Source: a virus | IMG/VR virus record: IMGVR_UViG_3300032087_006189 | Length of the DNA stretch: 64,000 nt | Direction: 5' to 3' (one strand) | Part shown: positions 2,780-62,187 of the stretch, piece after piece | Numbering within the stretch: the stretch's first letter is position 1 | Layout: each line of letters begins with the position of its first letter | Translations under genes and position numbers: made by a program | The notes under the pieces: model-generated | What the model was told of the DNA's origin: nothing | Databases searched by the model: none | What the model saw: only the letters and a program-made list of their open reading frames with translations

Positions 2780-4078
2780 ATGGAATACCTGACACTCTAT
2801 AGCACTGCCCGTACTGGAGCAGTGCGCGTTTGGGAAATCGCTGTCGATGAGGACCGGGTAATCACCCGCTTCGGGCAGCTCGATGGAAAGATGCAGGAAG
2901 TCGTGGACTACGGCACTGCGAAGAATGTCGGGCGGAGCAATGAGATCTCCGCCGAAGAAGATGCAGAAAACATGGCGCGTCGCATGGCGCGTCAGAAGAT
3001 GTTGAAGGGCTACCGAAAGACCCTGGTTCAAGAATCTGACGGCTTCAATCCGTTCACGGAGGAGGGGCTGCCCAGTGAGCTGTCCTTCTACAAGCCACAG
3101 AACTCCATGAGCAAGAAGATGGAGAAGCTGGTTGAAGCGGAAGAGGCGTGGGCGCTCCGTAAGTACGATGGCGAAATGATGGTCATCGTGAAAGATCTGG
3201 ACGGAATCGTAGACATCTACAGCCGGCGCATGCTCAGACATCACCACAATGAGGAGGACACCGCTTGGCGAGTTCGATTCAACCACCTTGTGTGTGAGAT
3301 CGAAAACAATGAGCGCATCCCTTCGGGGACTGTTCTTCTCGGCGAGATGGTTGCCTCTCCTCAGGAAGACAGCCGCTGGTATGTCGCGAAGGTCTTGAAG
3401 AGCCTGACTGACCGGGCAATAGATCTGCAGGAGGAGCACGGGCGTCTGCACTTCATCTGCTGGGATGTGGCCTGGTCAGGCGGAGAGCAGTTGATCGGCA
3501 AAGAATCTGTCGGTGTCCGATTGGATTACTGCAGGCTGTACGCAGGAACCTATCTCCGAGCCCCAGAGATGTTCTTCACCGGACATCCCTTCGACAGCGT
3601 CGACGCTCTCCGAGATCTTGCAGCTCGCAAGGGATGGGAAGGCTTCGTTGTGATCGATCCAGAGGCTACCTACGGAGACAAGGCGTTCAATCTGCGCGGC
3701 AAGCCTGACCGTCCCGCGGGTGCCTGTAAGTTGAAGCCGTGCTTCGAGGACGACTTCATCGCCTACTTCGATCCTGAAGATGGGCACGGCAAGTACGGCC
3801 GCGGCAAGTACACGGGAAAGCTCGGTGCGGTCAGCCTGTACCAGCACACCTCACTCGGCGGGCTCCAGTACATCTGCGAATGCGGCAACGGGTTCACGAA
3901 GGAGTTCATCGAGAACAACTCTGACCCCTCGGACTGGCCGAAGGTGATCGAAGTCAAGTACGAAAGCCGGACGTACAAGGATGCCGATGGGCACGGTACG
4001 AACGCACTTCAGTTTCCGCGATTTGTCCGCGTTCGCGAGGACAAGGACCCGGACGAGTGCATCAACCCGGAGCTGTGA
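2780..4078 (+). CDS. lig: ATP-dependent DNA ligase with N-terminal WGR-like domain
   Basis: Motif I KYDG, EGFVV (IV), KLKP (V), C-terminal LQFPRFVRVREDK (VI); N-terminal VWEI...RFGQLDGK. GGAGG RBS before ATG 2780. Confidence 0.9.
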   Translation: MEYLTLYSTARTGAVRVWEIAVDEDRVITRFGQLDGKMQEVVDYGTAKNVGRSNEISAEEDAENMARRMARQKMLKGYRKTLVQESDGFNPFTEEGLPSELSFYKPQNSMSKKMEKLVEAEEAWALRKYDGEMMVIVKDLDGIVDIYSRRMLRHHHNEEDTAWRVRFNHLVCEIENNERIPSGTVLLGEMVASPQEDSRWYVAKVLKSLTDRAIDLQEEHGRLHFICWDVAWSGGEQLIGKESVGVRLDYCRLYAGTYLRAPEMFFTGHPFDSVDALRDLAARKGWEGFVVIDPEATYGDKAFNLRGKPDRPAGACKLKPCFEDDFIAYFDPEDGHGKYGRGKYTGKLGAVSLYQHTSLGGLQYICECGNGFTKEFIENNSDPSDWPKVIEVKYESRTYKDADGHGTNALQFPRFVRVREDKDPDECINPEL

Positions 4079-4891: not shown

Positions 4892-5443
4892 CTACCGACG
4901 TTTCCGCATGGCTGACAGGGACAGTCTAATGCTGTCCTTAATGTCTTCGGGTGAAAAGCCGGCACCGAGACCGGCAATCCCGAGAGTCCTTCCTTTCCTA
5001 CCCTTGAGATTAGGTCTATTCTTCACCGCCCCCTTGATCCCGCTAATAGTTAGTTTACTGCCAAAACCAGGTGTACTCTTCGGCGCTGCTGCGCCCTTCA
5101 CCCACTTCTGGTTGTCCTTGTCCTTGGTCTTCTTCGGGCTCCACTTGGCCTTGTCGGCCCAGTAGGCTGCGGACATCTTGCCTCGTGCGATGTTCTTTCG
5201 GTGACGGGACTTGAAGGCTTCGCGCTGACCGGCAGTCTGGTTCGTCTTGACGCCCTGCTGCCCGAAGCGGATGGTCTTCACCCGATCCCCCTCTTTAGCC
5301 ACCACAATGTGCGACTTCGTGGGGTGTCCGGGGGTGCGCTTCACCTGGTTGTATCCAGAGACCCCTGCTCGAGCGAGGCGAGGATCTTTGGACTGGGCGG
5401 CTTCTTTTTCCATCAAGAACTGCCGAAGAGCTTTGTAGTTCAT
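4892..5443 (-). CDS. Basic putative virion cargo protein (MEKEAA leader + conserved small phage domain)
   Basis: RLARAGVSGYN...IRFGQQG...FKSRH...SAAYWADKAKW resembles a widespread small phage protein; bounded by KEAA and KGAA. Confidence 0.75.
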   Translation of the reverse strand: MNYKALRQFLMEKEAAQSKDPRLARAGVSGYNQVKRTPGHPTKSHIVVAKEGDRVKTIRFGQQGVKTNQTAGQREAFKSRHRKNIARGKMSAAYWADKAKWSPKKTKDKDNQKWVKGAAAPKSTPGFGSKLTISGIKGAVKNRPNLKGRKGRTLGIAGLGAGFSPEDIKDSIRLSLSAMRKRR

Positions 5444-7005
5444 TTCTTCGCCTTCAAGCTGGTGCCCTTGGCAAGCCCGTGGGAGCTGTACTGCTGGCCC
5501 TTGCGCGTTGCCTCTGACTTCTTTCGAGACGCGGCAGCAAGGCTCTTGCGTCCAGATTCGGTTTTCTTGAGTCTATCAGCCTTTCTTTCTGGGAGGTAGA
5601 CCCCTTTACCCCCCGGACCTGGCTTGTCTCCACCCGACCAGTTCCACTTTTGCTTGGTCCACTTCTTCAGCGAGTTGTTCTTCGAAGTGGGCTTGGCGCC
5701 GGAGTAGCCGCCGCCCTTCTTCTTGTAGATCTGAGTCGCCAGCTGCATTGCGCGAGCAGAGTGCTTGCCGCCCATCTTGTTCTTGGCTTCGCGCTTCGCG
5801 GCTTCCCACTTGACTGGGTCGGTCTTGGTGGCGGTCGCAGCAGCCTCTTTGCCAATTCCATAATGGGAAGGAGGATGTACGGACCACTGTCGATAGTCGG
5901 GCATAGAGCGACCGCTTTCCAGTTTGACTGTAGGCAGGGCCTTCATGGTCTTCAGGGTCTCTCTTCGATACTTTCTTTTTTGCTGACTTGTCAGGCCCTT
6001 ATTGTGGGAAAGGAACTCTTGGTTCTTCTTTCTGCCGGTGTCGAAGATGTCGTTGAACGCCGCAGACTCTTTGATCAAGTCTCCATCGGGGTGCTTGCGA
6101 ACCTTGCCGGAGGCGATCAACGACTTGATTGCGGACTGCAAATCGTCTTCCTTGACTCGCTTTTTGAGTGCGCCCATCCCTGCTGCGCCACCCTCAACAC
6201 TGAGCGCCTTCAGGACTTGCGACTCGGTGGAGGCTGCCTGCTTTCGCATGCGGAGCTTCTTCTTGATGATGCCGGCTTGGATCTTGTCTGGAAGCTGAGA
6301 CTGCTTGCCCTTGAGCGCAGGGTGCTTGTCCATGGACTTTGAGAAGGTTGCCGCAGATTCTTTGTCCATGAGCTCGTCCACGGGGCGGAAGAGGTAATCT
6401 TCTGCCATATCTCGTGAAAGCTGTTTCATTAGGGCGGGGTTTGCGAGTCTTCGCTTCTGGGCTGCCAAAGCCCTTTGATGCATCTGCTCGCCCCGCTCTC
6501 CACGCAGATCTTTATTCACCTTGTGCCCAGTAATGGCCCCCAGAAGTGCTCCAGCAGATCCAGTGACTGCCGGTGCATACCGCATCTTAGGGATGTACGA
6601 CAGGGGGTACCCGAGACCGACCCCAAGAAGCCCTCCTCCAAGGATTCCAAGAGGCACCATACTGGGTGCGTGCTTTGGGTGCGTAGGATCTTTCAGTAGT
6701 CCCGCATGGATCTCTCTGGCAAGCTCATTTGGGTCATCCGTGATGTGATCCTCTGCGATCCTGCCAGCTGCGTGGATGTCGTCGTCCTCATACTGAGACC
6801 AGTCTGCCGCCATCTTCTCTTCGTACTCACCGGGGTACGCAGTTCCCAGCGCACTGCCGAGCCCGCTGTAGGCGTTGTAGATCTTGTACTCGGCCCACGA
6901 CGGAATCTGGAGCCCAGAGTCGATCTTGTCCTTGAGGTGCAGAGCTTGAGCAGCCATGCGCTCAAGAACCTTGCTCAGCATATGAGAGTCGTCGTACTCG
7001 CTCAT
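5440..7005 (-). CDS. Multi-module polyprotein (about six modules; C-terminal DUF5872-like)
   Basis: Start reassigned to ATG 7005 (ATGA overlap with upstream stop). Linkers EKMAA, KESAA, KQAAS, KESAA, KEAAA. Glycine-zipper segment. C-terminal YKKKGGGY...SLKKWTKQKW...YLP. Confidence 0.75.
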   Translation of the reverse strand: MSEYDDSHMLSKVLERMAAQALHLKDKIDSGLQIPSWAEYKIYNAYSGLGSALGTAYPGEYEEKMAADWSQYEDDDIHAAGRIAEDHITDDPNELAREIHAGLLKDPTHPKHAPSMVPLGILGGGLLGVGLGYPLSYIPKMRYAPAVTGSAGALLGAITGHKVNKDLRGERGEQMHQRALAAQKRRLANPALMKQLSRDMAEDYLFRPVDELMDKESAATFSKSMDKHPALKGKQSQLPDKIQAGIIKKKLRMRKQAASTESQVLKALSVEGGAAGMGALKKRVKEDDLQSAIKSLIASGKVRKHPDGDLIKESAAFNDIFDTGRKKNQEFLSHNKGLTSQQKRKYRRETLKTMKALPTVKLESGRSMPDYRQWSVHPPSHYGIGKEAAATATKTDPVKWEAAKREAKNKMGGKHSARAMQLATQIYKKKGGGYSGAKPTSKNNSLKKWTKQKWNWSGGDKPGPGGKGVYLPERKADRLKKTESGRKSLAAASRKKSEATRKGQQYSSHGLAKGTSLKAKK

Positions 7006-7511
7006 TTCTTTTCCCAGTCGAGGGACACGGAGTCCTTGGTAATGGGGCCACCGGATGCCCAAGTATAGCAAGTACGGGCAGAATGGCACTTGAAGTGATG
7101 CATGTGGCAATAGCCGAGGTATCCGTCCTCTTGGACCATGCCGGGCATGCAGTCCTGCATTCGCGGAGAGATGTCGAAAGCCACGCAGTTCGAGCACTTC
7201 GACTTCTTGGCCACGGCAGGAGTCGTCTTCCAATGCGCGGCCAAGCGCCTCCAGTACCCTTGATCGGATAGATTCAGGGGTCCGTATTGGATGTGGTCAG
7301 CTTGGATCGACTTGTTGCGGTTCTTCGTATTGACCTTGAGATCGCGGGTCGCAAGCGGGCACGCTGCAGCCTCTTTCGATCCACCGAGGTGGTAGCCACA
7401 GTTCGAGCACTTCTCCGCACCAGCATGGTTCATGTGCCCGCACTTGGGACACTTGATCTTGCCGGCCGAGAGCTTGATCAGCTCAAGTGTGAATCCTGGG
7501 AGAAGTCTCAT
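7002..7511 (-). CDS. Zn-ribbon + Cys-rich module protein with KxA linkers
   Basis: FTLELIKLSA leader, CPKC..CSNC ribbon, KEAAA linker, then CPLAT...CSNCVAFD...GYCHMHHFKCHSARTC. Confidence 0.75.
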   Translation of the reverse strand: MRLLPGFTLELIKLSAGKIKCPKCGHMNHAGAEKCSNCGYHLGGSKEAAACPLATRDLKVNTKNRNKSIQADHIQYGPLNLSDQGYWRRLAAHWKTTPAVAKKSKCSNCVAFDISPRMQDCMPGMVQEDGYLGYCHMHHFKCHSARTCYTWASGGPITKDSVSLDWEKK

Positions 7512-10195
7512 TTTTTGTCCGTAAACTTCGTGCGATTGGTCAGGCGACTGACTGCGCGCAGATTAGCAGATCCATTGCCGCCGCCCTTGGAAATCGGCGT
7601 CTTGTGATCAGCTTCTCGAGGGTCGCCCTTCTTCAGGCCCAGTTTTCTGCGTGCCTGATTTCGCATGCTGCGGTTGGCTACTTGCTCTGGCTTTGCGTGG
7701 TACTGAGCGTACTCTCGGGCATAGTCTCTTTTGCGCTGACCGTATGGGGCTGCCGCGTATTTTGCGATTCCCTTTTCTATGAGCTCTCCTGACTCACTAA
7801 ATCGCGCCGGCCGAACGATCTCCTTCATTTTTGCGCCGACGCCTGCTCCGTCCTCAAAGGGATCAAAGAGCTTTCTCAGGTCATTGGGCTCTAAGGTCTT
7901 TGCATCGATACCTCCCACTACGTTGCGGAAGTCGTGAGCACTCGGTATCGCGTGAATCTCTCCATTTACTCGGCGCATACCAACTGGACGATCTCCAAAG
8001 GCCCTTTGAATCTCTCTGTGATCGAGCTGTTGCCACGGATTACTGGGATCGGCGTAGAACTTTTTATTCTGCACAAATCCAGCGTAGTTTGGGTTAGCTG
8101 CGTACCGCGCATTCCACTGCTTGAGGGCCTCATCTGTAGAGGGATCGTACGCTGACGGCGGCGGAGCCGCCGCACGAGAAGCTGCCGGAGGCGGTGCTGA
8201 CGGCGGCGGAGCCGCCGCACGAGAAGCTGCCGGAGGCGGTGCTGACGGCGGCGGAGCCGCCGCACGCGCAGTAGAGCGTGCAGCCTTGGGAGCGGAGCCT
8301 GCAGCCGAAGTAGCAGCGTCAGCTGCTCCGGTTGCAGCACGGCGAGTTGCTTTGGGGGCTGCGGATGGGGTCAGCTTCTTGAGGAGCTTTGGTGCTTGGC
8401 TGATTCCCGCACCAAGAGTTCCTCCCAGCAAGGCTCCCTTTAGTCCTCCGTAGTCTGCACCGGAATCGTACCCCGCAGCTCCGCCGAGGATTGCTCCGAT
8501 GCCCGCGCCAGCTGCGAGTGATGCGACCTTGACCCGCTCGCCGGGAGGCTTCATGTTCGGGCCCAGCACGGTCTTCACGACATGCTTTGATCCGATGTCG
8601 CCAATAACGACGTAGCCTTTTCCGCTTTTGAGGGGGACATGGTAGGTCTGCCCCTTGCGAAGATTCATCATCGGAATGCGCGCTCGAATCTTGGCGACTT
8701 CATAGGTCGCGCCTGGAGCTCGCTCTGCGATGCGGTCCTCTACATGACCGGCTTCCTTTTCGATATCACTGGCCTGTTGGAATACTGCTCTCATTTGATT
8801 TGCCAGCTCCGTCTTTTCATCGGCTCGATCTTGAATCCACTGCTCAGTGGACTTGCCAGGATCCATGCCGAGAAATCCCTTGGGAAGAGAAGAATAGTAC
8901 CGCTGCACATGAACCTTACGCTCTGCAGGCGGAAGATGGGCGTGACTCTGGTAGCGAACCCCGCGTCCGATCACCTGGTCGATCTTTGAGTTGTTCCAGT
9001 GGGGCTCAAGAACCTGAACCATCTTGGTGCCCTTGAGGTCCAGCCCCTCAGTTCCCGAACTCGAGACAAGCAGGACAGGGACCTTGCCCGAGTTGTACTC
9101 GTCTACCATCTGCGCCTTTTGCTTTGCGTTCAACTTCCCGGTCAGGGTGTTGAACTTGATCTTCTTCTTTTTTAGCGCGCGCTCGTAGGGCTTGAGCCCC
9201 GCCTCGATGTAGTTCGAGTAGACAACTCCGCGGAATCGGCGATCTTTCTTCTTTGCCTCGTGCAGTCTGCGGGCTGCTTCCTGAATCTTGGGAGTGTGGA
9301 GCTCCTCCTCCTCTTCCGTCATAGTGTCGACATACGGCTTCGGAGAAAGCGACGCTTGCCTGCCCGCAGTCGTAAACGCATTGAGCATTCGCGACTCTTG
9401 CTTTGAGGGCGGCAACCCTGCGCGGATCTTGCGTCGCACATGCCACGGAGCGGCGCCCATCACCGCATTGTAGACTTCCTTCTGCTTTCCCGACATTGGG
9501 ACATTGATGCGCTCGTCAATCTGCTCTGGGAAGTCCTCTGGGTTTGCCTCAGAATGGACATCGATCCTTCCCACGAGGGCATCGCGCAGCGCAGTGGCGT
9601 TCTGAAGGTCTTTGCGGATTCCGGGTTGAACACCTACCAACCGGTTCAACAAGCCAGGAGAAACCTTTGTCTCCCGGATAAACTTGCGCCGAAAAGACAT
9701 GGTGTCGGCAGGAAGTACGGTCTCCCCTGCAGCGATGTTTGCAAGAGGCGCAATATCAAAGGGCTGGTTGTACAGCGCGGTTCCAGTCAAGAGTAGCCGC
9801 TTACCGGCCTGTTCGGACTCAGGCCTCAGCGTTCTTGTTGTCAAAGACGGGTTCCGAAGCCTGTGTGCTTCGTCGAGAACTAGAAAAGAGCCGGGCTCGA
9901 TCGCTGCTCGCTCTTCCTTGGTTTTGCGGCGAACTGCTTTCTCGTAGGAGCTGATTCTGGCTTCGACCTCTCCCTTGACGTGCTTTTTGATCTCCTTTTC
10001 ATAGTTCTTCGTTAGCGATGCCGGAGTGATGATCTCCATCGGAGCACCACTTCTGACACCCGCAGCAATAGAGGTCAGCGTCTTTCCAGCCCCTACGCGG
10101 TGAGCAACAATGACGCCGTCGCTGTTCTCCAGCTTGCGGAGGACCCGCTCTTGATGCGGCTTGAGCTTGGCGGTGACTTTGGGAGATTTAGACAT
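7508..10195 (-). CDS. SNF2-family helicase fused to extra modules and a C-terminal HNH nuclease
   Basis: HRVGAGKT (I), DEAH (II), LLLTGT (III), EGLDL, QVIGRGVR (VI); then EKEAG, KVAS and KYAA linkers; C-terminal DHKTPISKGG...NLRAVSRLTNR. Start reassigned to ATG 10195. Confidence 0.85.
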   Translation of the reverse strand: MSKSPKVTAKLKPHQERVLRKLENSDGVIVAHRVGAGKTLTSIAAGVRSGAPMEIITPASLTKNYEKEIKKHVKGEVEARISSYEKAVRRKTKEERAAIEPGSFLVLDEAHRLRNPSLTTRTLRPESEQAGKRLLLTGTALYNQPFDIAPLANIAAGETVLPADTMSFRRKFIRETKVSPGLLNRLVGVQPGIRKDLQNATALRDALVGRIDVHSEANPEDFPEQIDERINVPMSGKQKEVYNAVMGAAPWHVRRKIRAGLPPSKQESRMLNAFTTAGRQASLSPKPYVDTMTEEEEELHTPKIQEAARRLHEAKKKDRRFRGVVYSNYIEAGLKPYERALKKKKIKFNTLTGKLNAKQKAQMVDEYNSGKVPVLLVSSSGTEGLDLKGTKMVQVLEPHWNNSKIDQVIGRGVRYQSHAHLPPAERKVHVQRYYSSLPKGFLGMDPGKSTEQWIQDRADEKTELANQMRAVFQQASDIEKEAGHVEDRIAERAPGATYEVAKIRARIPMMNLRKGQTYHVPLKSGKGYVVIGDIGSKHVVKTVLGPNMKPPGERVKVASLAAGAGIGAILGGAAGYDSGADYGGLKGALLGGTLGAGISQAPKLLKKLTPSAAPKATRRAATGAADAATSAAGSAPKAARSTARAAAPPPSAPPPAASRAAAPPPSAPPPAASRAAAPPPSAYDPSTDEALKQWNARYAANPNYAGFVQNKKFYADPSNPWQQLDHREIQRAFGDRPVGMRRVNGEIHAIPSAHDFRNVVGGIDAKTLEPNDLRKLFDPFEDGAGVGAKMKEIVRPARFSESGELIEKGIAKYAAAPYGQRKRDYAREYAQYHAKPEQVANRSMRNQARRKLGLKKGDPREADHKTPISKGGGNGSANLRAVSRLTNRTKFTDKK
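8151..8266. repeat. 45-bp perfect tandem repeat, ~2.6 copies, encoding RAAAPPPSAPPPAAS
   Basis: Unit gctgacggcggcggagccgccgcacgagaagctgccggaggcggt at 8151 and 8196, partial at 8241. Confidence 0.95.
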
Positions 10196-12110
10196 CCAAG
10201 CCCCACAAAACCATCGCCTCTTTTTTGGCATCTTCGTAGGTACGGGACTTGGCTGACGTCTCGCTTACGTCAGCCAGATCCGTCTTCCCTTTGAGCCTGC
10301 CGATAGTGGGGCGCTGTCCGAGAGCCTTGCCCAGGTGCTTCACATGCGCGTTTCTATCCGACACAAGGAAGTCAGCGGGGGCCGTCATTGACCATCTGCC
10401 GCCCCGAGTGTGAGTAGCGTGACCTTGCAGGGCATACGCGGCCCCAATCAGGTTGCTGCAGGTCCACTTGTCCGTCTTTTTGATCTCCTTGCCATGGTCC
10501 AGCTTCTTGTCGAAGTACTTCGGCATGAAGATCGAGAAGCCCTTTTTGGCCAAGAACTTGTGAGACTCGTAAGGGGCTCCCACCTGCGTCTTGGCAAATG
10601 TTGCAGCCGCGCGACGAGCCTTGGTGCTGACTTTTGGACGAACGACCACTGCCCCGTCCAAATCCCGTAGAGATCTCTTGAGAGATCGCCTTACGACGCC
10701 CCCCTGCAAAGCCTCGACTACCTGGCCCTTTCCGACGTAGATGGCAGAGTGGGTGTAGGATCCTTGCGCAGCGGGAGAAGCCTTGCGGAAGAACTGTTCC
10801 TTCATCCGCTTGTGAAGAGGGGCACCTGAGTCCTTCGAATACTGCTCGGGAGCCATAGCAGTGAGGATCACGTCTCCTACCTGCATGCCCTTTGAACTTG
10901 CTTCTCTGGCGGCCATCGCCTCTTTTTTGATGTCCTCGTAAGTACGGATTGATCGGAAGTTTGGAGACTTCTCCTCAATCTCTTTCCGGTACTTCAGATC
11001 ATCGAAGTGAGTAGTCAGTCCCATCTTGAGATCTGGAAGCATGGGCGTGCCTCGCTCTCGCGATCGCTTGCCCACCCGAAACATGCGAGTCGCCATTGGG
11101 GTGTCCAGGTACAGGACATCATCCGCCTGTGCCAACAGCTTAGGATACCTCAGTGCCCCTCTTGGGTATCCCTCCACAAGGACCCGCTTACCCTTTGCGC
11201 GCATCTTCAGTGCGAGAGCTTCTCTGCGGTTGCGAATCTTCTCGCGCTCGGCTTTGGGCGGCTTGACATACTGTCCGTTGACGACCCCTCCCGTGTCTGT
11301 CCCGATCAGGACATCAAACTCTCCGCTGTCGACCAGCTTCTTGGCCATCGTGCTTTTGCCCGCGCCGGCTCCACCAGTGATGAAAGTCAGTCGCGGAGCT
11401 TTGTCGGATGCCTCTTTTTTGAGCTCTCTTTGCGCCAGAATCTCAATGCCGGGGTATTTAGCGGCTACAGCTTTACGGACCTGTGATTTCTCCCCCGGAG
11501 TACCGTGCTGGGCTACTCGAGCTAGGGCATTGCGAGCATGAGATCGGTCATGGATCGGATAACGCCTACCGGGCAGAGCGAAGTTGCCTTCGGAGATCTG
11601 ATTACGTCCTCTGGTTGTTAGCTCTGCCGCTTCTTTCTTGAGCTCTCCGTAGGAGGCAGTCTTGTTCATCTGCTTGAACTGTCGAATGTGTTTGCAGTCC
11701 ACGACTTCTCCCGGTTTCGCGACCGAACGCTTGTAGCGCCAGTCGTTGCAGGTGCATCCCAGCCGGTCTTTGCCGCGCAGCTTGACGATGCTGTAACTCT
11801 TGGACCCGCTCTGGACGGTGCCGACCTTCTTTCCGGTCTGCAGGCGATTCATGTTGTCCGCGTGCATGACCAGCTTGGCATCAGAGCGAGAGTCACTTCC
11901 CAGCTGCTTCACAAAGGACTTGCGCGAAGCATTGTTGAGGAACTGGTCCCAGTCCTTCTTCTTTGCGGTGTGAAAGCTCTCGACCCGCGCACCGGCACGC
12001 TTCTTTTCTCTCGACTGAAAGAAGTTCTGAAGTCGGCCTCTGATTCCAGAAACAAAAGAGGATGGCGAAAACTCGCCATCCTTTTCAAACTCTGGATAGA
12101 AGTGGTACAT
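10188..12110 (-). CDS. Polyprotein: SWIM Zn finger + DUF6582-like + P-loop kinase + permuted papain-like (YiiX/YebB-type) amidase
   Basis: CTCNDW...CKH; FALPGRRYPIHDRSHARNALAR; GGAGAGKST; GDVILT...YTHSAIY...VVEA...GAPY...CSNLI. Modules separated by KEAA/KEAS/KEAM. Confidence 0.8.
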   Translation of the reverse strand: MYHFYPEFEKDGEFSPSSFVSGIRGRLQNFFQSREKKRAGARVESFHTAKKKDWDQFLNNASRKSFVKQLGSDSRSDAKLVMHADNMNRLQTGKKVGTVQSGSKSYSIVKLRGKDRLGCTCNDWRYKRSVAKPGEVVDCKHIRQFKQMNKTASYGELKKEAAELTTRGRNQISEGNFALPGRRYPIHDRSHARNALARVAQHGTPGEKSQVRKAVAAKYPGIEILAQRELKKEASDKAPRLTFITGGAGAGKSTMAKKLVDSGEFDVLIGTDTGGVVNGQYVKPPKAEREKIRNRREALALKMRAKGKRVLVEGYPRGALRYPKLLAQADDVLYLDTPMATRMFRVGKRSRERGTPMLPDLKMGLTTHFDDLKYRKEIEEKSPNFRSIRTYEDIKKEAMAAREASSKGMQVGDVILTAMAPEQYSKDSGAPLHKRMKEQFFRKASPAAQGSYTHSAIYVGKGQVVEALQGGVVRRSLKRSLRDLDGAVVVRPKVSTKARRAAATFAKTQVGAPYESHKFLAKKGFSIFMPKYFDKKLDHGKEIKKTDKWTCSNLIGAAYALQGHATHTRGGRWSMTAPADFLVSDRNAHVKHLGKALGQRPTIGRLKGKTDLADVSETSAKSRTYEDAKKEAMVLWGLDV

Positions 12111-12111
12111 C

Positions 12112-12756
12112 TCAGGCCGTGATGAAAGCCCGGAACCTCGACTCGAGAGTGGAACCAGAGAGCGTATCCTTTAGGATGTTCTCCAGCGGGTAGATGGTGA
12201 GACCCTTCTTCTCTCGCGCTGTCCGGTAGTTGTAGTTCCGGCTCATCATAACAGTACGGGGATCTGTCGGGCTATACTTCGCGTAGATGTCCGCGTTGCT
12301 CCCGATTTTGCGCCACCACCAGGCCAGCTTCTCGGCGGCTTGGTTGATGGTCATGCTGTACATGATCGAGTCTCCGATCTGATCTAGCCGGTGCGCAACA
12401 TGGCAATGCGGACAGACCACCATGCCGGTCTCTTGGGCGAGGTCGCCAGAGATCAAGTTGTTGCACCCCTTCTTTGTCTTGACCTTTGCTGCGGCCATCT
12501 CAAACGGCCGCACGGATGGGGCAGTCTCATTTCTGCGGCAGATGAACATCATCTCATCACCGCCGCCATGAAGCCGCTTGCCAGATTCCCAGAAGGAGAC
12601 GGAGAACACCACAGGCTTGTGCATTGATCGGTCAGACCGGAACCAGATCTGGATCTTGTACTTCGCCTTCTTGGCACGCTCTTCGTCGGCCTTCTGGTTT
12701 TCGACTTCGATCTTTCTAGCGATCTCTGCAGTAAGACGCTCTTGATTCAACTTCAC
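12112..12756 (-). CDS. Hypothetical phage protein (Cys motifs)
   Basis: 214-aa ORF in the coupled operon; CPHC motif. Confidence 0.75.
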   Translation of the reverse strand: MKLNQERLTAEIARKIEVENQKADEERAKKAKYKIQIWFRSDRSMHKPVVFSVSFWESGKRLHGGGDEMMFICRRNETAPSVRPFEMAAAKVKTKKGCNNLISGDLAQETGMVVCPHCHVAHRLDQIGDSIMYSMTINQAAEKLAWWWRKIGSNADIYAKYSPTDPRTVMMSRNYNYRTAREKKGLTIYPLENILKDTLSGSTLESRFRAFITA

Positions 12757-13283
12757 GGCATCGCTCCGCTGGCTACGGTCACATAGGCGCCCTTTCTACG
12801 GTCGCCGAACTTCTTGGTCACTCCCTCTCCAGGGTCATCTCGATTGCCCCGAGAAAAGGGGAGTTGAACTCTTTTGATCACTCGAACACCCTCAGAGGTC
12901 TGAACCTTATGCGCTCCGAGGATTCGGCTATTTTGGGTCTTTTCCGTCTTGGGATCTTCGACCTTCTCCAGTTTGACTGGAATCTCCGTCTGCACAGTTG
13001 AGTGCAAGATCGGCCCAAGGTCAGCCGCTGCGGACTCGATGTCTCCCCAGATCAAGAAGACCCACATGAACGAAGGGTTGCCCTCGACCAGCAGGTATTC
13101 CTTGCGGATCGAGATGACATACTCTTCCTCGTCCTCTGCAAACTGCAGGAGGTCAACAAGGATTGATCCCCACGCCTTTTGATCCAGAACTCTGAGCTGG
13201 ATCTTATGAGTGATTCCTTCTTCGTCGGTCTGTTCGTCAATCAGCTCGATATATTTCGAGCGTTTAATGTAGGACTTGAACAT
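12753..13283 (-). CDS. Hypothetical phage protein
   Basis: 176-aa ORF in the operon. Confidence 0.75.
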   Translation of the reverse strand: MFKSYIKRSKYIELIDEQTDEEGITHKIQLRVLDQKAWGSILVDLLQFAEDEEEYVISIRKEYLLVEGNPSFMWVFLIWGDIESAAADLGPILHSTVQTEIPVKLEKVEDPKTEKTQNSRILGAHKVQTSEGVRVIKRVQLPFSRGNRDDPGEGVTKKFGDRRKGAYVTVASGAMP

Positions 13284-13286
13284 GGA

Positions 13287-13640
13287 TTACCATCCGGTAA
13301 GGGCCTCGGTCACGAGGGAATACAGCTGAGGGAGTACTGATTCTCCGTCTTCATGGGATGCAGACTTTTCATGCGGCAGCTCTTGCCACACGAGATGCTT
13401 GCAGGGACGGCCGCCAGCAAGGCTATCCAAAGAAACTCCTTCTGGCTCACCCGCCTCTCGGGGGTATGCGCAGCAGATGTTTTCTTGGCAGACCTCTGGC
13501 TGACAGGTGCCTGTCCTCTCAGATCCCAGAAAGGAGTAGGTACAGCCAGAAGGGACGAAGTCGGTCACCTTCGGGTAGTCTTGGCAAAACTGGGGGCGAG
13601 TCGCGTAGATTCCACATCTTCCAACACAGGCCATGATCAA
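13287..13640 (-). CDS. YkgJ/CxxCxxCC-like cysteine-cluster protein
   Basis: GRCGIYATRPQFCQDYP matches the C-x-I-Y-x-x-R-P-x-x-C-x-x-Y-P signature. Confidence 0.6.
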   Translation of the reverse strand: MIMACVGRCGIYATRPQFCQDYPKVTDFVPSGCTYSFLGSERTGTCQPEVCQENICCAYPREAGEPEGVSLDSLAGGRPCKHLVWQELPHEKSASHEDGESVLPQLYSLVTEALTGW

Positions 13641-14158
13641 GTCCTCCGTACTTCGCAGGCAATAGCCTTCTCGAAATCACGGACCATCGTACCCGTAGTA
13701 CTTCCACAGAAGAAGACGAAGTTCTCTGGTGCGTCGGGATCTTCGTAGACGGGAATTCCGAAGACGGCAGCCACATCGACCTGCGGAACCCATGCCGAGA
13801 GAATCTCGGTGTTTGGTACCACAACGCCTACGGGATCTGCCCCTTCTCGAAGTCGGGCCAAGATCCTGCACACCTGCAGCAGCGGGTCATCGTTGATCTC
13901 GTCAAAGATCTCAAGCTCACAGTGCTGACGCACAACCTGGTACGGAGTGACCAGACCACTCTCGAGACCCAGCTCTTCCGTATCGACAAGTCTGGGAACT
14001 TCTACCTGAAGGTCTTCGCCCTTCTGATACAAGATTCGAGTCGGCTTGTCCTTGCGCGAAAACAACGCCTCAATGGAGCTAAGCAACGCAGACAGCGTCT
14101 TGCGCTCCAAAGGGACGGTCTCCGCCACAACGACCTTACGACGAGGCTTGAGTTCCAC
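13637..14158 (-). CDS. Hypothetical phage protein
   Basis: 173-aa ORF, GTG start, coupled to the next gene. Confidence 0.7.
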   Translation of the reverse strand: MELKPRRKVVVAETVPLERKTLSALLSSIEALFSRKDKPTRILYQKGEDLQVEVPRLVDTEELGLESGLVTPYQVVRQHCELEIFDEINDDPLLQVCRILARLREGADPVGVVVPNTEILSAWVPQVDVAAVFGIPVYEDPDAPENFVFFCGSTTGTMVRDFEKAIACEVRRT

Positions 14159-27089: not shown

Positions 27090-27908
27090 CTACCACTCGT
27101 CGAGGAGTGTGTAGCTGAAGGTGGCGCGGCCAGTCTTCTCGACCTGCATGTGTGCGAGTTCCATCATGCGGGCGAAGCCGACCTGAGTGGCATGGACCTG
27201 ACAGCCTGCAGACCACTTGTTGACCTGAGTAGACTCACCGCCGACTCGCTGAGTCGCGGCGTGCAAGTTGATGCCGTACAGACCGCGGACGATGGTAGCG
27301 GGGTCCATGTCAAGGTTGTTGTCCCGGTTGGAGTCTCGGTAGACGCGAACCTCACCGTTCCGCTGACACAGGGCGGTGTACTTTCCACCGTGCTTGTCGA
27401 TCTTCCACACATCAAGGTACTGGCCCTCTACAAGAATGGCTGTCCCGGACGACTTGCTGGGGTTTTCCAGCCAGTAGGTTCCGGGGTCGGTGGTTCCGGG
27501 CCAGTACTCTACATTGCAGGTACCGCCTTCATCAAACCACGCACAGCCGAGGGTGTCGTCAAATGCGTTTGCTTCACGGCTGGGGCTGCGGATGCCAAAG
27601 AGCCAGAGTCGGTAAGGTGTGTCCCACACCTGATGCCCCAGCTCTTGCGCCTTCTTCATCACGGGAGGAAGACCCTCTGATTGGATGGTGATGCTGGGCT
27701 TTGAGGAGGCCATCAGCTCTGCCCAAGTACCCCGACCGATGATGCCGTCGGCATCCAGCCCCTTTGCCCGCTGAAAGGCAACAGCTGCAGCCGCAGTTCC
27801 TTTCCCGAAGATCCCGTCTACATCGCAGGTGAAGCCGTGCTCATTCAGCTTCTGCTGTGCGAGCTTGACTGCGTCACCACGAGATCCAACTTTTACCAAC
27901 TGCATCAT
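27090..27908 (-). CDS. Putative endolysin: peptidoglycan-binding domain + His/Cys (L,D-transpeptidase-like) catalytic domain
   Basis: PG_binding_1 pattern (GSRGDAVK..Q..L...DGIFGKGT..AV.AFQ...DGIIG..TW); GINLH...WSAGCQV. Confidence 0.75.
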   Translation of the reverse strand: MMQLVKVGSRGDAVKLAQQKLNEHGFTCDVDGIFGKGTAAAAVAFQRAKGLDADGIIGRGTWAELMASSKPSITIQSEGLPPVMKKAQELGHQVWDTPYRLWLFGIRSPSREANAFDDTLGCAWFDEGGTCNVEYWPGTTDPGTYWLENPSKSSGTAILVEGQYLDVWKIDKHGGKYTALCQRNGEVRVYRDSNRDNNLDMDPATIVRGLYGINLHAATQRVGGESTQVNKWSAGCQVHATQVGFARMMELAHMQVEKTGRATFSYTLLDEW

Positions 27909-33401: not shown

Positions 33402-33947
33402 ATGCAGAGAGCACCGTATGGGTACGACCCAACGCAGAAGGTGCGGGAGTTTCGAGGTCGGGTTCGAGAGGGAAATCTCCTTCTCGCGCAGCACATTGTA
33501 GTTCCCATCAAAGAGGGGGGACTGGCCTACGGCAGCGTATCTACGCAGTTCCTATCTCTTTACCCGGGAGTTGAGATTCCAGACCTGGAGTTCCGGCAGG
33601 CACGCACAATCGTCCTTGATCGAGAGCACGGCAGGACGGTGACCTTCGTGTGCTTTTGGAACGACAACGTAAAGTACGACGCAAACCACATCTCAATCTG
33701 TGCGAATCGAGCAATCGTCTCGTTTAGCACCGCCTGTATGATGGATCCTGAGCGGTTCAACATCAGGTGGCTTGATGAAGACCGGACCCTGTCTCTTCCC
33801 CTGTTCAAGGGATGCGAGGGGAGCCCACACAATGTGGCCTGCCTCGAGGTTGAGATCTGCGATACGCAGGAAAGACTGGATCGCGGCGTCATCTGTCCGT
33901 GCGAAGTCGAGATTGTAGTGCGGAACAAGGAAAGGGTTCCCTCTTAG
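33402..33947 (+). CDS. Hypothetical protein
   Basis: AGGAGG RBS; 181 aa. Confidence 0.75.
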   Translation: MQRAPYGYDPTQKVREFRGRVREGNLLLAQHIVVPIKEGGLAYGSVSTQFLSLYPGVEIPDLEFRQARTIVLDREHGRTVTFVCFWNDNVKYDANHISICANRAIVSFSTACMMDPERFNIRWLDEDRTLSLPLFKGCEGSPHNVACLEVEICDTQERLDRGVICPCEVEIVVRNKERVPS

Positions 33948-34855
33948 AGGTAGTCCACCCCTTCAAGGTTCCGCACAAACCGCTCCTCCACTTCCTGTGG
34001 GCCCACTGGTTGCGCTCCCGCAAGAAACCTTTGGGCCCACGCCTTGGCCTTTCTGGCCTTCTCGGTGCCGCCCAAGGTCTCGTCGAGCATCTCCGGGAAC
34101 TCGTCTGCAGGGATGTCCTCAATAGACTCCGCGGCGTCCAGAAGCCCGATTTGGCGCATGCGTGCTTCCAGCATCGCCGCGCGCCGTGCTTCCTGTCGGG
34201 CAGGGCTTTGTGCCCATTCGATTCCGTGCTCGTCCACCTGTCGCAGCAGGGTGGGCAGATTCGGTCTGCGCGATGGATTCAAGATTGCAATGTCGCCCTC
34301 TCCCAGTTGGTAATCCCCTCGAACACGGGCCAACATGGGTGCTCTTTTACCTGTCGCTTGGTGAACTCCGCCCAAGATGAGCTTCTGCTGGTCATCCTTG
34401 CTCAGCCTTTCGAGATTTGCGAAGATTCCTTCTGAGTCTCGACTTGCAAAGAATCGATCTCCTGCGTCCTCGTACCCGAACCCTCTCCCGAAATAGACGT
34501 CTTTGAGTCCTGGGGGCGTGTACTGGGCGCGCTCTCCAACACTTCCCGGGATCGCACCGTCTCGCAGGATCTTTTCCATTGCGGGGAGGCCGCCGTAGGT
34601 CGTGTCGTGAGTCAAGAAGCCGCGGTCTGTTACATATTTACTGAGAAAAGAGTCGGTTTCCGGTATTGCATCTCGGTACCCCTTGAGCAATCGACGGAAC
34701 TGCGGGACCGCATCTGATTCACTGACCAGAGTCCGAAGTTTTTTGGGAATCGCTGCGAGCTTCTCAAGCTCATCTACAAAAAACTGGAATGTCGCGGTGT
34801 CCATGCCGGCCCTCTTTGGCGCCATACTAACATGTGGGAAGAGATTCGTACTCAT
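33944..34855 (-). CDS. Putative virion cargo protein with FFVDELEKLA leader; possible ADP-ribosyltransferase-like fold
   Basis: Leader motif; LTHDTT...KILRDGAI...DVYF resembles the H-x-T...IL..G...VYF pattern of ART folds. Confidence 0.55.
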   Translation of the reverse strand: MSTNLFPHVSMAPKRAGMDTATFQFFVDELEKLAAIPKKLRTLVSESDAVPQFRRLLKGYRDAIPETDSFLSKYVTDRGFLTHDTTYGGLPAMEKILRDGAIPGSVGERAQYTPPGLKDVYFGRGFGYEDAGDRFFASRDSEGIFANLERLSKDDQQKLILGGVHQATGKRAPMLARVRGDYQLGEGDIAILNPSRRPNLPTLLRQVDEHGIEWAQSPARQEARRAAMLEARMRQIGLLDAAESIEDIPADEFPEMLDETLGGTEKARKAKAWAQRFLAGAQPVGPQEVEERFVRNLEGVDYL

Positions 34856-42205: not shown

Positions 42206-42660
42206 ACTGCAAGGAATACAACGAAAAGTACGCAAAGCAGCGCGAAGATTTCGAGTCCGCAGTCAAGAACTGGCTGACGGAGAACCCGGAGCGCTTCATC
42301 GCGTTCCGGTCGTACATCCCTGGTCATACCGACAACGGGTACGGCCTTCCCTGTGTGGCCGTCATTGGCCCGGCCCCAGGGTTTGTGGATGAGTACTTCG
42401 TGTCGTCGAACGGATCGATCTACGAGATTGAGTACTTCGATGAAGAGTCGGAAGATCTCACCGAGTGGGACCGCAAGTACCTGGCAGAGCGGAAGGACTG
42501 GGACTGGAAGAAGCGCCTCGATGAAGCAGATCACGAGCTGGAAGGCATGCTTGCAGACTGCTTCTACTGGGCCATCAATGCGTGGGATGTTGACGGGAAG
42601 ATCACGCTCGTCGATGGCGAAATTGTGATCGACACCACTTACTACGACTGTGGGTACTGA
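42202..42660 (+). CDS. Hypothetical acidic protein
   Basis: Coupled ORF; C-terminal YDCGY. Confidence 0.7.
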   Translation: MNCKEYNEKYAKQREDFESAVKNWLTENPERFIAFRSYIPGHTDNGYGLPCVAVIGPAPGFVDEYFVSSNGSIYEIEYFDEESEDLTEWDRKYLAERKDWDWKKRLDEADHELEGMLADCFYWAINAWDVDGKITLVDGEIVIDTTYYDCGY

Positions 42661-42661
42661 C

Positions 42662-42937
42662 ATGGCAAGAAAGAGCTACACGCCCGCCGAGCGAGCCCTC
42701 CACCTTATCGGTGTCCTCGCCGGTAAGTCCCGGCAGGAGATCAACGACGCCATCGCTTACGGGGACGCCGTGAAGATGGTGCCCGTCCAAAGGCTGAAGG
42801 AGATCCCGCAGGGCTCCCTCGACATGCTCAAGGAGCGGTATGTTCCCAAGTTCACGGGAGGGCCCGAGCTGGAGACGGGAGACTGGGAAGTGGTCTGGGA
42901 CCACTGTGTCTCCCCCAAGAAGGTGGGCGACCTGTGA
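42662..42937 (+). CDS. Hypothetical protein
   Basis: ORF in the operon. Confidence 0.65.
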   Translation: MARKSYTPAERALHLIGVLAGKSRQEINDAIAYGDAVKMVPVQRLKEIPQGSLDMLKERYVPKFTGGPELETGDWEVVWDHCVSPKKVGDL

Positions 42938-43407
42938 TCGCAAGGGCGCTCTTCCAGGCTCAGCCGAGCTTGGAAGGGCTGCCCCTCGGTAGACTGAACT
43001 ACGCCAGTATGCGGTACGTCAGACAATTCTTCCCAGAACAGCTGATGGACCTGGTCGTACTGATGTCCCGAGGCATTGAAGATCCCCGCATCTCGTACCG
43101 CTGCCACGAGCTCAAGGCTGGTCAGATGATCGGCCATGCGCGCTGGCATCAGGATGGGAAGCTTGGAGAAAGCAGGGAAGGAGAGATCCACCGTCTGATC
43201 ACCGTCAATGGTGTTCCGACGCTGGGCCTCATTGGAGATGGTGACCCGGATGAGGGGCCATACCAAGTCCTGCACGCGGGAATCGTGTGGGAGTATGACG
43301 GCGACTACTGGCACAAAGCGCGGCCGGTGGAGGTCGCCTGCAAGAGACTCATGCTTCGCGTGAGCAAGACCAACATGAGATACCGAAACCATTGGAGCGC
43401 AAAATGA
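42934..43407 (+). CDS. Possible 2OG-Fe(II) oxygenase / cupin-like protein
   Basis: WHQD (HxD)...WHKA...RLMLR spacing typical of double-stranded beta-helix dioxygenases. Confidence 0.5.
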   Translation: MIARALFQAQPSLEGLPLGRLNYASMRYVRQFFPEQLMDLVVLMSRGIEDPRISYRCHELKAGQMIGHARWHQDGKLGESREGEIHRLITVNGVPTLGLIGDGDPDEGPYQVLHAGIVWEYDGDYWHKARPVEVACKRLMLRVSKTNMRYRNHWSAK

Positions 43408-43733
43408 AAGACATCAAGATTGAGAGCCTTGATCACCTGAGGACCATCTGCTCCGGGGAGAACGCCATCGAGTGTTACATCCTCATCGGAGGTTTCATAC
43501 GGTCGTCGAAAGTCGTGTTGTTTACTGACCCTGGGTGGTGGGTTCTACACGAAATCGATGACTCCGAAGTTGACTACGAAGACGATGAGCACCTGATGGA
43601 TACACACATTGGTGACGCCATCGATAAGGGTGCGATGTATGCATACGTGTTCGAACACATGACCAAGGAAGACGTCAACAATCTCATGGCTACCCGCCCC
43701 GAGCCCAAGCCTGTGGAGCAGATGAGAGAGTGA
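43404..43733 (+). CDS. Hypothetical protein
   Basis: Coupled ORF; hairpin downstream. Confidence 0.7.
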   Translation: MKDIKIESLDHLRTICSGENAIECYILIGGFIRSSKVVLFTDPGWWVLHEIDDSEVDYEDDEHLMDTHIGDAIDKGAMYAYVFEHMTKEDVNNLMATRPEPKPVEQMRE

Positions 43734-60401: not shown

Positions 60402-60834
60402 GGTTGAATCCCTGCTGGGCTCGTGCTTGCCGGTCTTGCTGTAGGTAGTTTTGGCCCGCCTGAACTCCCTTGTACCCACCGTAGAGAGCTCCTGCCCCGG
60501 CCACACCAAGTGCTGCTTTCCCGACATTCTGGTCGCTGAACATCTTACCGAAGAAAGATGGGGCTTTCGCCTTTGGAATCGTTGCAAGGGCGGTAGTGGA
60601 GCCCGGCAATCCTGCTTTCTTTTCAATCTGGTGCCAGCGCAGTGATGTTGCAGCACGTTGCTGGATGTAGCCCATAAGGCTTGCTTCCTTACTGATCGTC
60701 ATCTTATTCGCCCCAAAGGGATTCAGGGCAGCAGTTCCCTTTGTTGCCTGGAGTTTAGGACGCGGAACCGCAAGCCGCGGCCTCGGAAGGCCGCGGACAT
60801 TGGGCAGTCCTTCTCCTGGTGGGGTTCCTTCCAC
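60385..60834 (-). CDS. Putative virion protein with KxA motifs and a Gly-rich TM helix
   Basis: SKEAS, IEKKAG; ALGVAGAGALYGGY. Confidence 0.65.
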   Translation of the reverse strand: MEGTPPGEGLPNVRGLPRPRLAVPRPKLQATKGTAALNPFGANKMTISKEASLMGYIQQRAATSLRWHQIEKKAGLPGSTTALATIPKAKAPSFFGKMFSDQNVGKAALGVAGAGALYGGYKGVQAGQNYLQQDRQARAQQGFNPKGVY

Positions 60835-61088
60835 TACCGGTATCCACCGTAGGTGTAGGAGTTGCCCATGCCAATCCGCTGACGCTGGCGATGCTGACCA
60901 GAACTGACCCTGCGACGGTACATCTTCTGCCGACGCGCGATCTGCGCACGGTTGCGCGCACGATACTGCCGCTGCTGCTGCAGAATCCGGTTGCGGTTTC
61001 GCATGTAGTAGCCGTGACGCTTGCGCCGCTTGTCGGACGCAAGCTTCTCGAGCTCGTCTACAAAGAAGTGGAAGACCTCATCGCCCAT
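60834..61088 (-). CDS. Arg-rich basic protein with FFVDELEKLA leader
   Basis: MGDEVFHFFVDELEKLASDKRRKRH...; start reassigned to ATG 61088. Confidence 0.75.
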   Translation of the reverse strand: MGDEVFHFFVDELEKLASDKRRKRHGYYMRNRNRILQQQRQYRARNRAQIARRQKMYRRRVSSGQHRQRQRIGMGNSYTYGGYR

Positions 61089-61488: not shown

Positions 61489-62187
61489 TCAGCCGGTGAT
61501 CAGGCCGACAACCTCAGTGTTGACCGGAACCATGCGCTCGAACTGAATGGCGCACTGCTCCTGAATGAGAGTACCCATCGCGTCGGTCGAAAGGCTGTGG
61601 TTGGGGATGTAGCACGACTCGAAGTAGCCAGCACCGAGAGTATCCTCGTTGCTGTCCTTCATCAGAGTCAGCAGACCCACCGGCTGCGTGAAGAGGTCCG
61701 AAGCCAAGTTCAGGAAGATGTTCTCGTACCCAGGAGGGATGATGACATCGTGCGGGTTGGCCACGGTCGCAGCGCCGATGTTCGAGAACACGGGGCTCAC
61801 AAACGTCGGAGGGATGATGTCCTGGTAATACGCGTACAGGACGCGCAGGAGGGACGGACCGTGGTAGAGCACGCGGCCCAAGTTGATCTGCCCCATCACT
61901 CGACCAGGGATGAAGTAGCTGCGAACTGAGCCGATCTCGAAGATACGACTCAGCTGCATGTTGTGGCTCAGGTTGAAGTTCTGGACCACGCCAATCGGGT
62001 AGGCCAGCATGTCTTCAGCGGTAGAGCCTGCTGTGAGGGCAGCACCGAGGAACTCGGGGCCGCCCACATTCGCGAGACGAGGGGGACCAGCGCAGATGAC
62101 GGTGTAGGCCGCGTTCATGAAACGGCCGTCAACCATACCGCCCTGGACATTGTCCTCGTAGGGGGACCATTGTGAGAGAGTTGCCAT
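61489..62187 (-). CDS. Tail tube protein (contractile tail)
   Basis: PIGVVQNFNLS...RIFEIGS.RSYFIPG...YFESCYI...IQFER; downstream of the sheath gene. Confidence 0.75.
   Translation of the reverse strand: MATLSQWSPYEDNVQGGMVDGRFMNAAYTVICAGPPRLANVGGPEFLGAALTAGSTAEDMLAYPIGVVQNFNLSHNMQLSRIFEIGSVRSYFIPGRVMGQINLGRVLYHGPSLLRVLYAYYQDIIPPTFVSPVFSNIGAATVANPHDVIIPPGYENIFLNLASDLFTQPVGLLTLMKDSNEDTLGAGYFESCYIPNHSLSTDAMGTLIQEQCAIQFERMVPVNTEVVGLITG

Follow-up and report, generated by a model that had tools for sequence, protein, structure and literature searches.

The stretch of DNA examined here (64,000 nucleotides of IMG/VR virus record IMGVR_UViG_3300032087_006189, hereafter the window) derives from an uncultured 155-kb phage, a myovirus that has Salmonella phage Arash and Bacillus phage G among its distant relatives, and it contains five tightly packed genes (A-E, 12110-4892, minus strand) encoding multi-module proteins. 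The analysis of these proteins and of their relatives revealed that a short Lys-x-Ala tag, under selection as a peptide, marks the limits of modules, each of which is shuffled independently of the others, and that the same tag also ends leaders on unrelated proteins. We regard it as somewhat probable that K-x-A, with its upstream hydrophobic/acidic context, is the recognition site of a head protease having the fold of T4 gp21, and that the products of genes A-E are among its substrates; this reading is the most economical one.

The motif on which the first-pass annotation had relied is confirmed in its core form and is only weakly above composition in its broad form. The core KE[AS][ASGM] is found 10 times in A-E against 0.71 expected, i.e., a 14-fold enrichment (0 of 5000 shuffles reached 10), and once in the 18,621 amino acids of crude open reading frames (ORFs) that served as the window background (Fisher 4e-9); none of the 10 KE-type sites lies within a Pfam or PHROG envelope. 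The broad pattern K.[AS][ASGM] gives 21 sites in A-E versus 13.9 expected (about 4% of shuffles reach 21), an excess that is weak because the A-E proteins are rich in Lys and Ala (11% each); compared with the rest of the window, its density is 8.7 versus 2.1 per 1000 amino acids, a 4-fold difference (Fisher 1.5e-6). Four of the 21 sites (KRAG-37, KDSG-426, KHSA-414 and KMSA-89) are probably due to chance or internal to domains. The tail and baseplate proteins encoded downstream of the operon (14,000 amino acids) contain 2.1 sites per 1000 amino acids, and giant proteins of 2332 and 760 amino acids contain none. The codon choice varies from site to site, so that selection or conservation acts on the peptide, and a recombination signal at the DNA level was rejected on account of the same differences.

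The five ORFs that had been reported are all present at the coordinates given, on the minus strand, and the genes overlap: the junctions B/C, C/D and D/E are 4-nt overlaps of the ATGA type, and A and B also overlap, by 8 nt with the B start at 10195 and by 44 nt with an alternative start at 10231. Metagenome gene callers agree on C, D and E (169, 521 and 183 amino acids, respectively). The five genes prolong a longer tight minus-strand run, whose upstream genes (12112-14158) are almost devoid of the motif and match no family. Gene A (10188-12110, 640 amino acids) begins with a leader/N-terminal region followed by a module (residues 31-153) bearing a CxC..CxH, SWIM-like signature and ending in KTAS (residues 150-153, 11652-11663), the first half of a double site whose second half is KEAA (159-162, 11625-11636); stand-alone homologues begin with 'MSELTT..' right after the latter. 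A DUF6582-like module (162-224) comes next and is followed by KEAS (232-235, 11406-11417), a P-loop kinase (236-396), KEAM (396-399, 10914-10925), a C92 module (400-630) and a C-terminal KEAM (630-633, 10212-10223) placed 7 amino acids before the stop. In gene B (7508-10195, 895 amino acids), an SNF2 helicase (1-480) is joined by KEAG (480-483, 8747-8758) to a small module (484-556), which KVAS (556-559, 8519-8530) separates from a Gly-zipper/Pro-rich module (560-812); KYAA (812-815, 7751-7762) then precedes an HNH-like module (816-895). Gene C (7002-7511, 169 amino acids) consists of a 12-residue leader ending at KLSA (13-16, 7464-7475), a Zn ribbon, KEAA (46-49, 7365-7376) and a Cys-rich module. 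Gene D (5440-7005, 521 amino acids) is split by KMAA (64), KESA (215-218, 6352-6363, in the context VDELMD-KESA, like the N-terminal leaders), KQAA (255), KESA (312-315, 6061-6072) and KEAA (386-389, 5839-5850), where its DUF5872-like C-terminal module (386-521) begins and 37 high-scoring segment pairs start. Lastly, gene E (4892-5443, 183 amino acids) has a 12-residue leader, MNYKALRQFLME, ending at KEAA (13-16, 5396-5407), a module at 17-116 (phrog_7595), KGAA (116-119, 5087-5098), near which 18 high-scoring segment pairs end at residue 118, and a basic tail.

The domain calls of the annotation were largely confirmed with Pfam, PHROG and NCBIfam; SWIM (CxC..CxH, gene A) and HNH (DH..N..N, gene B) are sequence signatures without a Pfam call. 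Gene A contains DUF6582/phrog_16160 at residues 162-212, a P-loop kinase at 242-357 and a permuted papain-like C92 domain at 429-516; the latter, a predicted amidase, is borderline for PF05708 (27.8 bits, cut-off 27) and matches NF008552 (E 4.5e-8). The N-terminal bead of gene B (SNF2 and Helicase_C, 10-468) passes the Pfam thresholds (PF00176, 57.8 bits, cut-off 24.9; PF00271, 53.2 bits, cut-off 23.5) and also matches phrog_62, a giant helicase family of 1881 positions, and the HNH-like module includes the conserved C-terminal module phrog_4590 (821-890). The Zn ribbon of gene C lies at 18-42, gene D shows a weak DUF5872 match at 395-497, and gene E matches phrog_7595 at 17-101 and, weakly, phrog_220 ('minor head protein and DNA pilot'). 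No match was obtained when Pfam and PHROG were searched with eight neighbouring genes and the tail proteins. An AlphaFold2 (AF2) model of gene A computed without an alignment reached a predicted local distance difference test (pLDDT) of 40.

Evidence for the tag as a boundary comes from homology blocks, the edges of which, in hundreds of metagenomic relatives, fall on K-x-A, as the annotation had suggested for domain boundaries. For genes B-E, BLAST block edges coincide with the motif at residues 386, 215 and 315/316 of D, 13 and 118 of E, 812 of B, and 13, 46 and 49 of C. Among gene A homologues, 109 of the 263 internal block edges are located within 10 amino acids of the motif against 28 expected, a statistic that is somewhat inflated, given that alignments run on through a tag common to all modules. 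At the edges, the consensus has a hydrophobic residue at -2 and E or K at -1, and then Lys-x-Ala followed by A/S/G. Exhaustive searching with the gene A product retrieved 1901 proteins, in which the stand-alone occurrence of modules could be ascertained: segments 31-153, 157-224, 235-400 and 394-630 are each found alone, and the same four modules are also embedded in proteins of up to 1783 amino acids, at varying positions and in varying architectures. Most of the 161 database relatives of gene D share just its last 135 residues (65-97% identity); this C-terminal module is present in more than 100 proteins, where its partners include NUDIX, acetyltransferase (GNAT), DnaJ, kinase, flavodoxin-like, ferritin, Zn-ribbon, Gly-zipper, DUF5754 and DUF6582 modules.

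No copy of the window was found by exact 42-mers in viral, metagenome and genome collections or by megablast versus phages, and a search for related loci with gene A alone gave no match. Five IMG/VR relatives (G001-G005) were found via a 1194-amino-acid protein of the baseplate region, and four of them (G001-G004) carry the operon, with differing sets and orders of beads. In G002, a single ORF of 1129 amino acids comprises module 1, an unassigned segment, SNF2, the small module, C92 and the HNH-like module; in G003, the order is module 1, two unassigned segments, SNF2, the small module and the HNH-like one; G001 and G004 harbor module 1, the small module and the HNH-like module, with no SNF2 whatever. 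SNF2 follows in frame after ..KKEAA in G002 and after ..QKTAA in G003; in the phage under study, gene A ends in ..KKEAM plus 7 residues and SNF2 belongs to a separate, overlapping gene. Similarly, module E lies in G004 in frame behind another protein, right after KEAA (..KTASYAEAKEAA), and here it forms a gene of its own with the leader MNYKALRQFLMEKEAA. The Gly-zipper/Pro-rich bead of gene B is an insertion between two K-x-A sites, which correspond to one joint in G001, G003 and G004. Gene C is 82-93% identical in G002 and G004, with the motifs retained. The genes are beads joined by K-x-A, as had been proposed, and the modules are independent evolutionary units, which occur alone, reordered, and fused or split at the motif; fusion, fission and insertion all occur exactly at the tag, and this is what would be predicted if single beads were delivered.

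The double site of gene A, KTAS-YGELK-KEAA (11625-11663, minus strand), has a counterpart, KTAS-YAEA-KEAA, at the joint where D and E are fused in G004 (locus L044, 6080-7564). A spacer peptide of 5-9 residues may be released between the two cuts.

The tag is also found at the end of N-terminal leaders. Database proteins headed by a gene A module usually either start right after the site (MSELTT.., corresponding to KEAA|ELTT) or carry a leader of 8-25 residues having the site at its end, such as ..SILKEAG, ..FTKEAA, ..FLDECEKIAS, ..FVNELEKLAA and ..FIDELEKIAR. Genes C and E possess leaders of 12 residues, and the pattern FxDELxKxA[AS], with the motif at its end, is present on unrelated proteins. 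Two examples outside the operon are the products of 33944-34825 (293 amino acids) and 60834-61088 (84 amino acids), both on the minus strand, unrelated to each other and without a family match, whose tags are near-identical: ..FQFFVDELEKLAA|IPKK (of the FFVDELEKLAA or FFVDELEKLAS type) in the former and ..FHFFVDELEKLAS|DKRR in the latter, the two proteins sharing FFVDELEKLA[AS]. These tags are candidate capsid-targeting leaders. The internal joint VDELMDKESAA of gene D resembles the leader end FFVDELEKLAA. Short N-terminal leaders ending at a candidate protease site are therefore found on unrelated proteins, and they would behave like the capsid-targeting sequence of T4, which is removed by the head protease (PMC5694885).

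A protein with sigma-70 region 3, encoded among baseplate-side structural genes (locus L012, 13175-14005, about 7.1-7.9 kb before the window start), starts with MAVKDRLLKIAAK, including a K-x-A-A tag, and its N-terminus, MAVKDRLLKIAA, was confirmed on a public contig. A 79-amino-acid gene located two genes upstream of it contains ..FDEMHKIAA. Likewise, in Arash the sigma factor gp10 lies behind a cell-wall hydrolase and has been detected in virions.

The relatives also permitted the analysis of the motif in the head module. The Arash SNF2 protein gp217 is 38% identical to gene B, and the sheath-like and tube-like proteins of the two phages are homologous as well. The proteins encoded between the SNF2 and the capsid genes of Arash contain 19-25 sites per 1000 amino acids (gp220-225 being dense) versus 2.35 genome-wide; gp222 matches the PHROG head maturation protease (E 2e-6) and has sites on both sides, and Pfam and PHROG searches with gp218-221 and gp223-225 gave no match. 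The Arash capsid protein has ..GLVKEAG at residue 27, a site that 118 of the 120 family members retain, although conservation extends over their entire N-terminus. G001 (164.6 kb, 89% complete) has ..EGPTKTAA at residue 23 of the capsid protein, KTAS at 37 and KIAS at 293 of a 560-amino-acid homologue of Arash gp222 and phage G gp19, and 9-11 sites in scaffold-like ORFs near this protease. The site density in the same genome peaks only in the head module (5.7-5.8 per 1000 amino acids; Poisson 1e-13) and in the polyprotein operon (4.0-4.6; 4e-6), elsewhere being 0.3-2.6. The phage G protein gp19, a head maturation protease according to the annotation in PMC12484599, carries KTAA-43, KVAS-248 and KIAS-274 flanking the domain (locus L134, 9000-30000); two sites (KQAA at 18, KIAS at 625) are present in the portal gp14 of this phage, and none in its 282-amino-acid capsid protein gp27. 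On the whole, the site is common to capsid protein, scaffold-like proteins and protease in the relatives (G001-G005, Arash and phage G). The motif pattern is absent from Pseudanabaena phage PA-SR01, the other SNF2 relative.

The G001 ORF directly downstream of the protease (429 amino acids; locus L046, 231-1520, minus strand; G001 42385-43674) contains 11 sites in the repeats DLEKAAA, LFEKAAA, LFEKTAA and LFQKTAS. It is likely a scaffold that would be cut into short pieces.

The protease itself is flanked by the site in a conserved manner. Among 34 distinct homologues (28-85% identical), 29 carry a site that precedes the domain at a constant position, and most also keep one just C-terminal to it. 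In the 810 ORFs surrounding 80 protease loci, 1564 sites were counted versus 667 expected, and 298 ORFs have a site within their first 45 amino acids versus 100 after shuffling. PDB searches by sequence and by profile with the protease gave no match; the G001 protease domain was modelled from a 50-sequence alignment with a pLDDT of 89. The best PDB match of the model was T4 gp21 (5jbl_B), with a Z score of 9.0 and a root-mean-square deviation of 2.8 A over 131 residues; 36 herpesvirus assemblins came next (Z 5-7.8), and unrelated folds reached Z 4.1 at most. Foldseek alone gave weak E-values, and the Z scores come from re-alignment. H101 and S157 are invariant across the 50 sequences. The model thus indicates that the relatives encode a head protease of the gp21/assemblin fold flanked by the motif, which makes the prohead protease put forward by the annotation a plausible cutter.

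On the basis of these data, the following scenario can be proposed. Genes A-E would encode polyvalent cargo polyproteins, in which each bead (SNF2 helicase, P-loop kinase, C92 papain-like amidase, HNH-like module, Zn ribbons, Gly-zipper, DUF5872-like basic module) ends in a short tag of approximately the form aromatic/hydrophobic-x-[DE]-hydrophobic-x-K-x-A-[A/S/G/M]. The cut would probably fall right behind Ala and ahead of a small residue (K-x-A|S/A/G), a placement modelled on the herpesvirus assemblins, which share the fold and cut after Ala. The polyproteins would enter the prohead, be cut there into single modules and stay with the DNA; at infection, the modules might leave with it and act as early helper or anti-defence enzymes, a role modelled on the T4 internal proteins and Alt, on P1 DarB and on the ejection proteins of phiKZ and SPN3US. 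Packaging and ejection are suggested by the leaders, by these precedents (T4 internal proteins/Alt, P1 Dar, phiKZ, SPN3US and the polyvalent concept, PMC5512222), and by the detection of Arash gp217 (SNF2) in purified virions by mass spectrometry (PMC10585845). Of the interpretation given by the annotation, the bead structure stands, the cleavage and cargo part has only indirect support, and the wording 'RNA-virus-like polyprotein' is an analogy rather than a finding.

Several observations weigh against the recognition of K-x-A by a head protease acting on A-E. The head-module evidence derives from relatives, which show 40-85% identity in some proteins, and the operon itself adjoins tail and baseplate genes, outside the head module. 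The gp21-type proteases of T4, phiKZ, 201phi2-1 and SPN3US all cut after Glu (PMC5694885), and the cuts identified in SPN3US, self-cleavage of the protease aside, all remove N-terminal propeptides and do not separate functional domains (PMC10052503). Some K-x-[AS] matches occur inside conserved domains, as KHSA-414 does within the conserved DUF5872 core; at some joints in relatives, R or E follows the Ala, so that the rule is a loose one; and the inflation of the block-edge statistic mentioned above points in the same direction. Finally, the Arash virion proteome comprises 116 proteins (PMC10585845), and the detection of gp217 among them is weak proof of packaging.

Three other explanations can be considered. 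The tag might be a capsid- or scaffold-targeting element that doubles as a linker and is cut only at leaders, if at all, the multi-domain proteins being packaged and acting intact, like the N4 virion RNA polymerase and P1 DarB. Such behaviour would agree with the full-length packaging or transfer of polyvalent proteins (PMC5512222) and with the N-terminal propeptides yielded by the SPN3US cuts beyond self-cleavage (PMC10052503). We consider it unlikely, as internal junctions share extended sequence with leader ends (VDELMDKESAA versus FFVDELEKLAA), the same module is found either fused or as a separate leader-bearing gene, the last site of gene A lies 7 amino acids from the C-terminus, where a linker would be useless, and the scaffold-like proteins with 9-11 sites are what fragmentation predicts. 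Even less probability attaches to K-x-A as an uncut signature of junctions (reflecting a preference for helix ends or linkers, or left behind by module-shuffling recombination) with no role in proteolysis or packaging. The broad pattern, marginally above composition (21 versus 13.9), and the low-confidence AF2 model, which puts several sites inside helices, would fit it; the KE-type core is nonetheless 14-fold above expectation, the differing codons argue against a recombination signal in the DNA, and a linker preference would not predict the enrichment seen around the protease, at the N-termini of the capsid and portal proteins and in head proteins that are not modular.

It might also be asked whether the cutting is done not by the head protease but by another enzyme, in the cytoplasm or after injection, with the embedded C92 module or a host enzyme as candidates, in which case the products would be intracellular enzymes and not cargo. 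Gene A does contain a papain-like C92 domain, and autoprocessing by embedded peptidases was proposed by Iyer et al. (PMC5512222). Against this, G001, G003 and G004 keep the junction tag in an operon without the C92 module, Pfam describes C92/YaeF-type proteins as amidases and not endopeptidases, and the motif clusters in proteins of the head module and keeps its positions on either side of the gp21-fold protease over 28-85% identity; this explanation appears improbable.

The head-protease reading can be extended to a broader proposal, which is tentative and rather less probable: one portable code, hydrophobic-x-K-x-A|small, would be read by a gp21-fold protease with Ala and not Glu at P1, would load arbitrary enzymes into the prohead and would cut polyproteins throughout a widespread lineage of large phages, to which Arash, Vibrio D148-like phages, phage G and numerous uncultured phages would belong along with the phage under study. 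The capsid would then deliver with the DNA an evolvable kit of at least 15 separate effectors, and genes might fuse or split freely with their products unchanged.

Other genes in and around the window complete the picture of the locus. An ATP-dependent DNA ligase (2783-4078, plus strand; 432 amino acids according to metagenome calls; weak PF01068/PF04679) is encoded on the other strand, immediately beyond the downstream end of the operon. The protein encoded at 27090-27908 (minus strand) has an N-terminal PG_binding_1 domain (E 3e-14) and is probably a lysin or a virion-associated hydrolase. Homologues of Arash gp237 and gp236 (tail tube/sheath region) are located at 61489-62187 and 62696-64000 (both minus strand; loci L017-L019). 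The sheath-like gene (988 amino acids) crosses the window end, and the public contigs that bear its neighbour are all broken a short way upstream of it, which suggests a genome terminus or a repeat. A walk along public contigs over about 40 kb before the window start disclosed genes for tail and baseplate, followed by a region with RusA. Three giant genes (L013, 10648-17646; L016, 4960-9819; L016, 10648-17349) are located downstream of those on the baseplate side; their products of 2332, 1619 and 2233 amino acids are almost devoid of K-x-A sites and match no family; a divergent block containing RusA then follows.

It is known that phages encode multi-domain polyvalent proteins, predicted to be packaged and processed (PMC5512222), and that the head proteases of T4, phiKZ and SPN3US process internal and ejection proteins (PMC5694885, PMC10052503). 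In the published literature, no description was found of a Lys-x-Ala junction/leader code, of its link to a gp21-fold protease, or of fusion and fission at the tag. If the tag were a cut site, it would define a new specificity class for the T4/herpes-type capsid protease, provide a simple sequence rule for predicting virion cargo in many uncultured large phages, and account for the mosaic nature of their head-associated genes, since function would survive the exchange, fusion or splitting of beads at the tag. Another possible use of the tag is to load foreign proteins into the capsids of this lineage. Arash, Vibrio phage D148 and phage G are cultured relatives, and for two of the three, virions have already been analysed by mass spectrometry.

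The closest parallel in architecture is represented by the polyvalent proteins (Iyer, Burroughs, Anand, de Souza, Aravind 2017; PMC5512222), in which one polypeptide joins 2-15 unrelated conflict-type domains, and SNF2 helicases, papain-like and other peptidases, nucleases and Zn ribbons are common to them and to A-E. They share portal-terminase phages, extreme domain mosaicism, predicted head packaging and possible processing; in the proteins studied here, at least two unrelated effector-type domains per polypeptide were found (in A and B, and in homologues for the D/E modules), together with rapid domain shuffling (G001-G004). Polyvalent proteins differ in that autoprocessing by embedded metallopeptidases or papain-like domains was proposed and no common junction motif was described, whereas in A-E every bead is bounded by a K-x-A tag shared, in relatives, with capsid, scaffold-like and protease proteins, and the beads are distributed over five coupled genes, with the tag as the point of fusion and fission. 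The Dar system of phage P1 (DarB SNF2/methylase, DdrB) likewise involves a head-packaged SNF2-type protein and operon-encoded helpers that are injected and protect the incoming DNA, and DdrB is proteolytically processed, according to the citation in PMC5512222; it differs in its protease and in the absence of a common junction tag, and the sequences are related only at the level of the SNF2 superfamily.

As regards processing, phiKZ, 201phi2-1 and SPN3US (gp175, gp245) are also large myoviruses with many internal head proteins, including enzymes, with paralogous or mosaic head proteins and with a gp21-type protease that self-cleaves and whose substrates are marked by a three-residue motif; there, however, the motif is S/A/G-x-E, propeptides are removed in SPN3US (PMC10052503), and no enzyme-bead polyproteins have been described. 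Herpesvirus assemblins share the protease fold (Z 5-7.8), and their R and M sites, cut after Ala before a small residue, resemble K-x-A|S/A/G, as in the pseudorabies virus cuts YLQA-T and VQA-S (PMC4498786); they process only the protease-scaffold precursor and not cargo polyproteins, and their sites have no Lys at P3, a comparison in which the scissile bond of the present system is a predicted one. With T4 gp21 and its substrates IPI-III and Alt, A-E share leaders on unrelated proteins ending in the candidate protease site and the proposed ejection with the DNA, and the relatives share the site in capsid protein, scaffold-like proteins and protease, as well as the predicted gp21 fold. T4 gp21 cuts after Glu (L/I-x-E; PMC5694885), the candidate site here being K-x-A-[A/S/G], and no x-x-E pattern of the L/I-x-E or S/A/G-x-E type was found at the A-E boundaries; moreover, T4 cargo is single-domain and loses only its leader, whereas processing of the A-E proteins would release as many as six modules from each. 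Judging from the sequences, A-E would thus work like a T4-type system without being a member of it by specificity.

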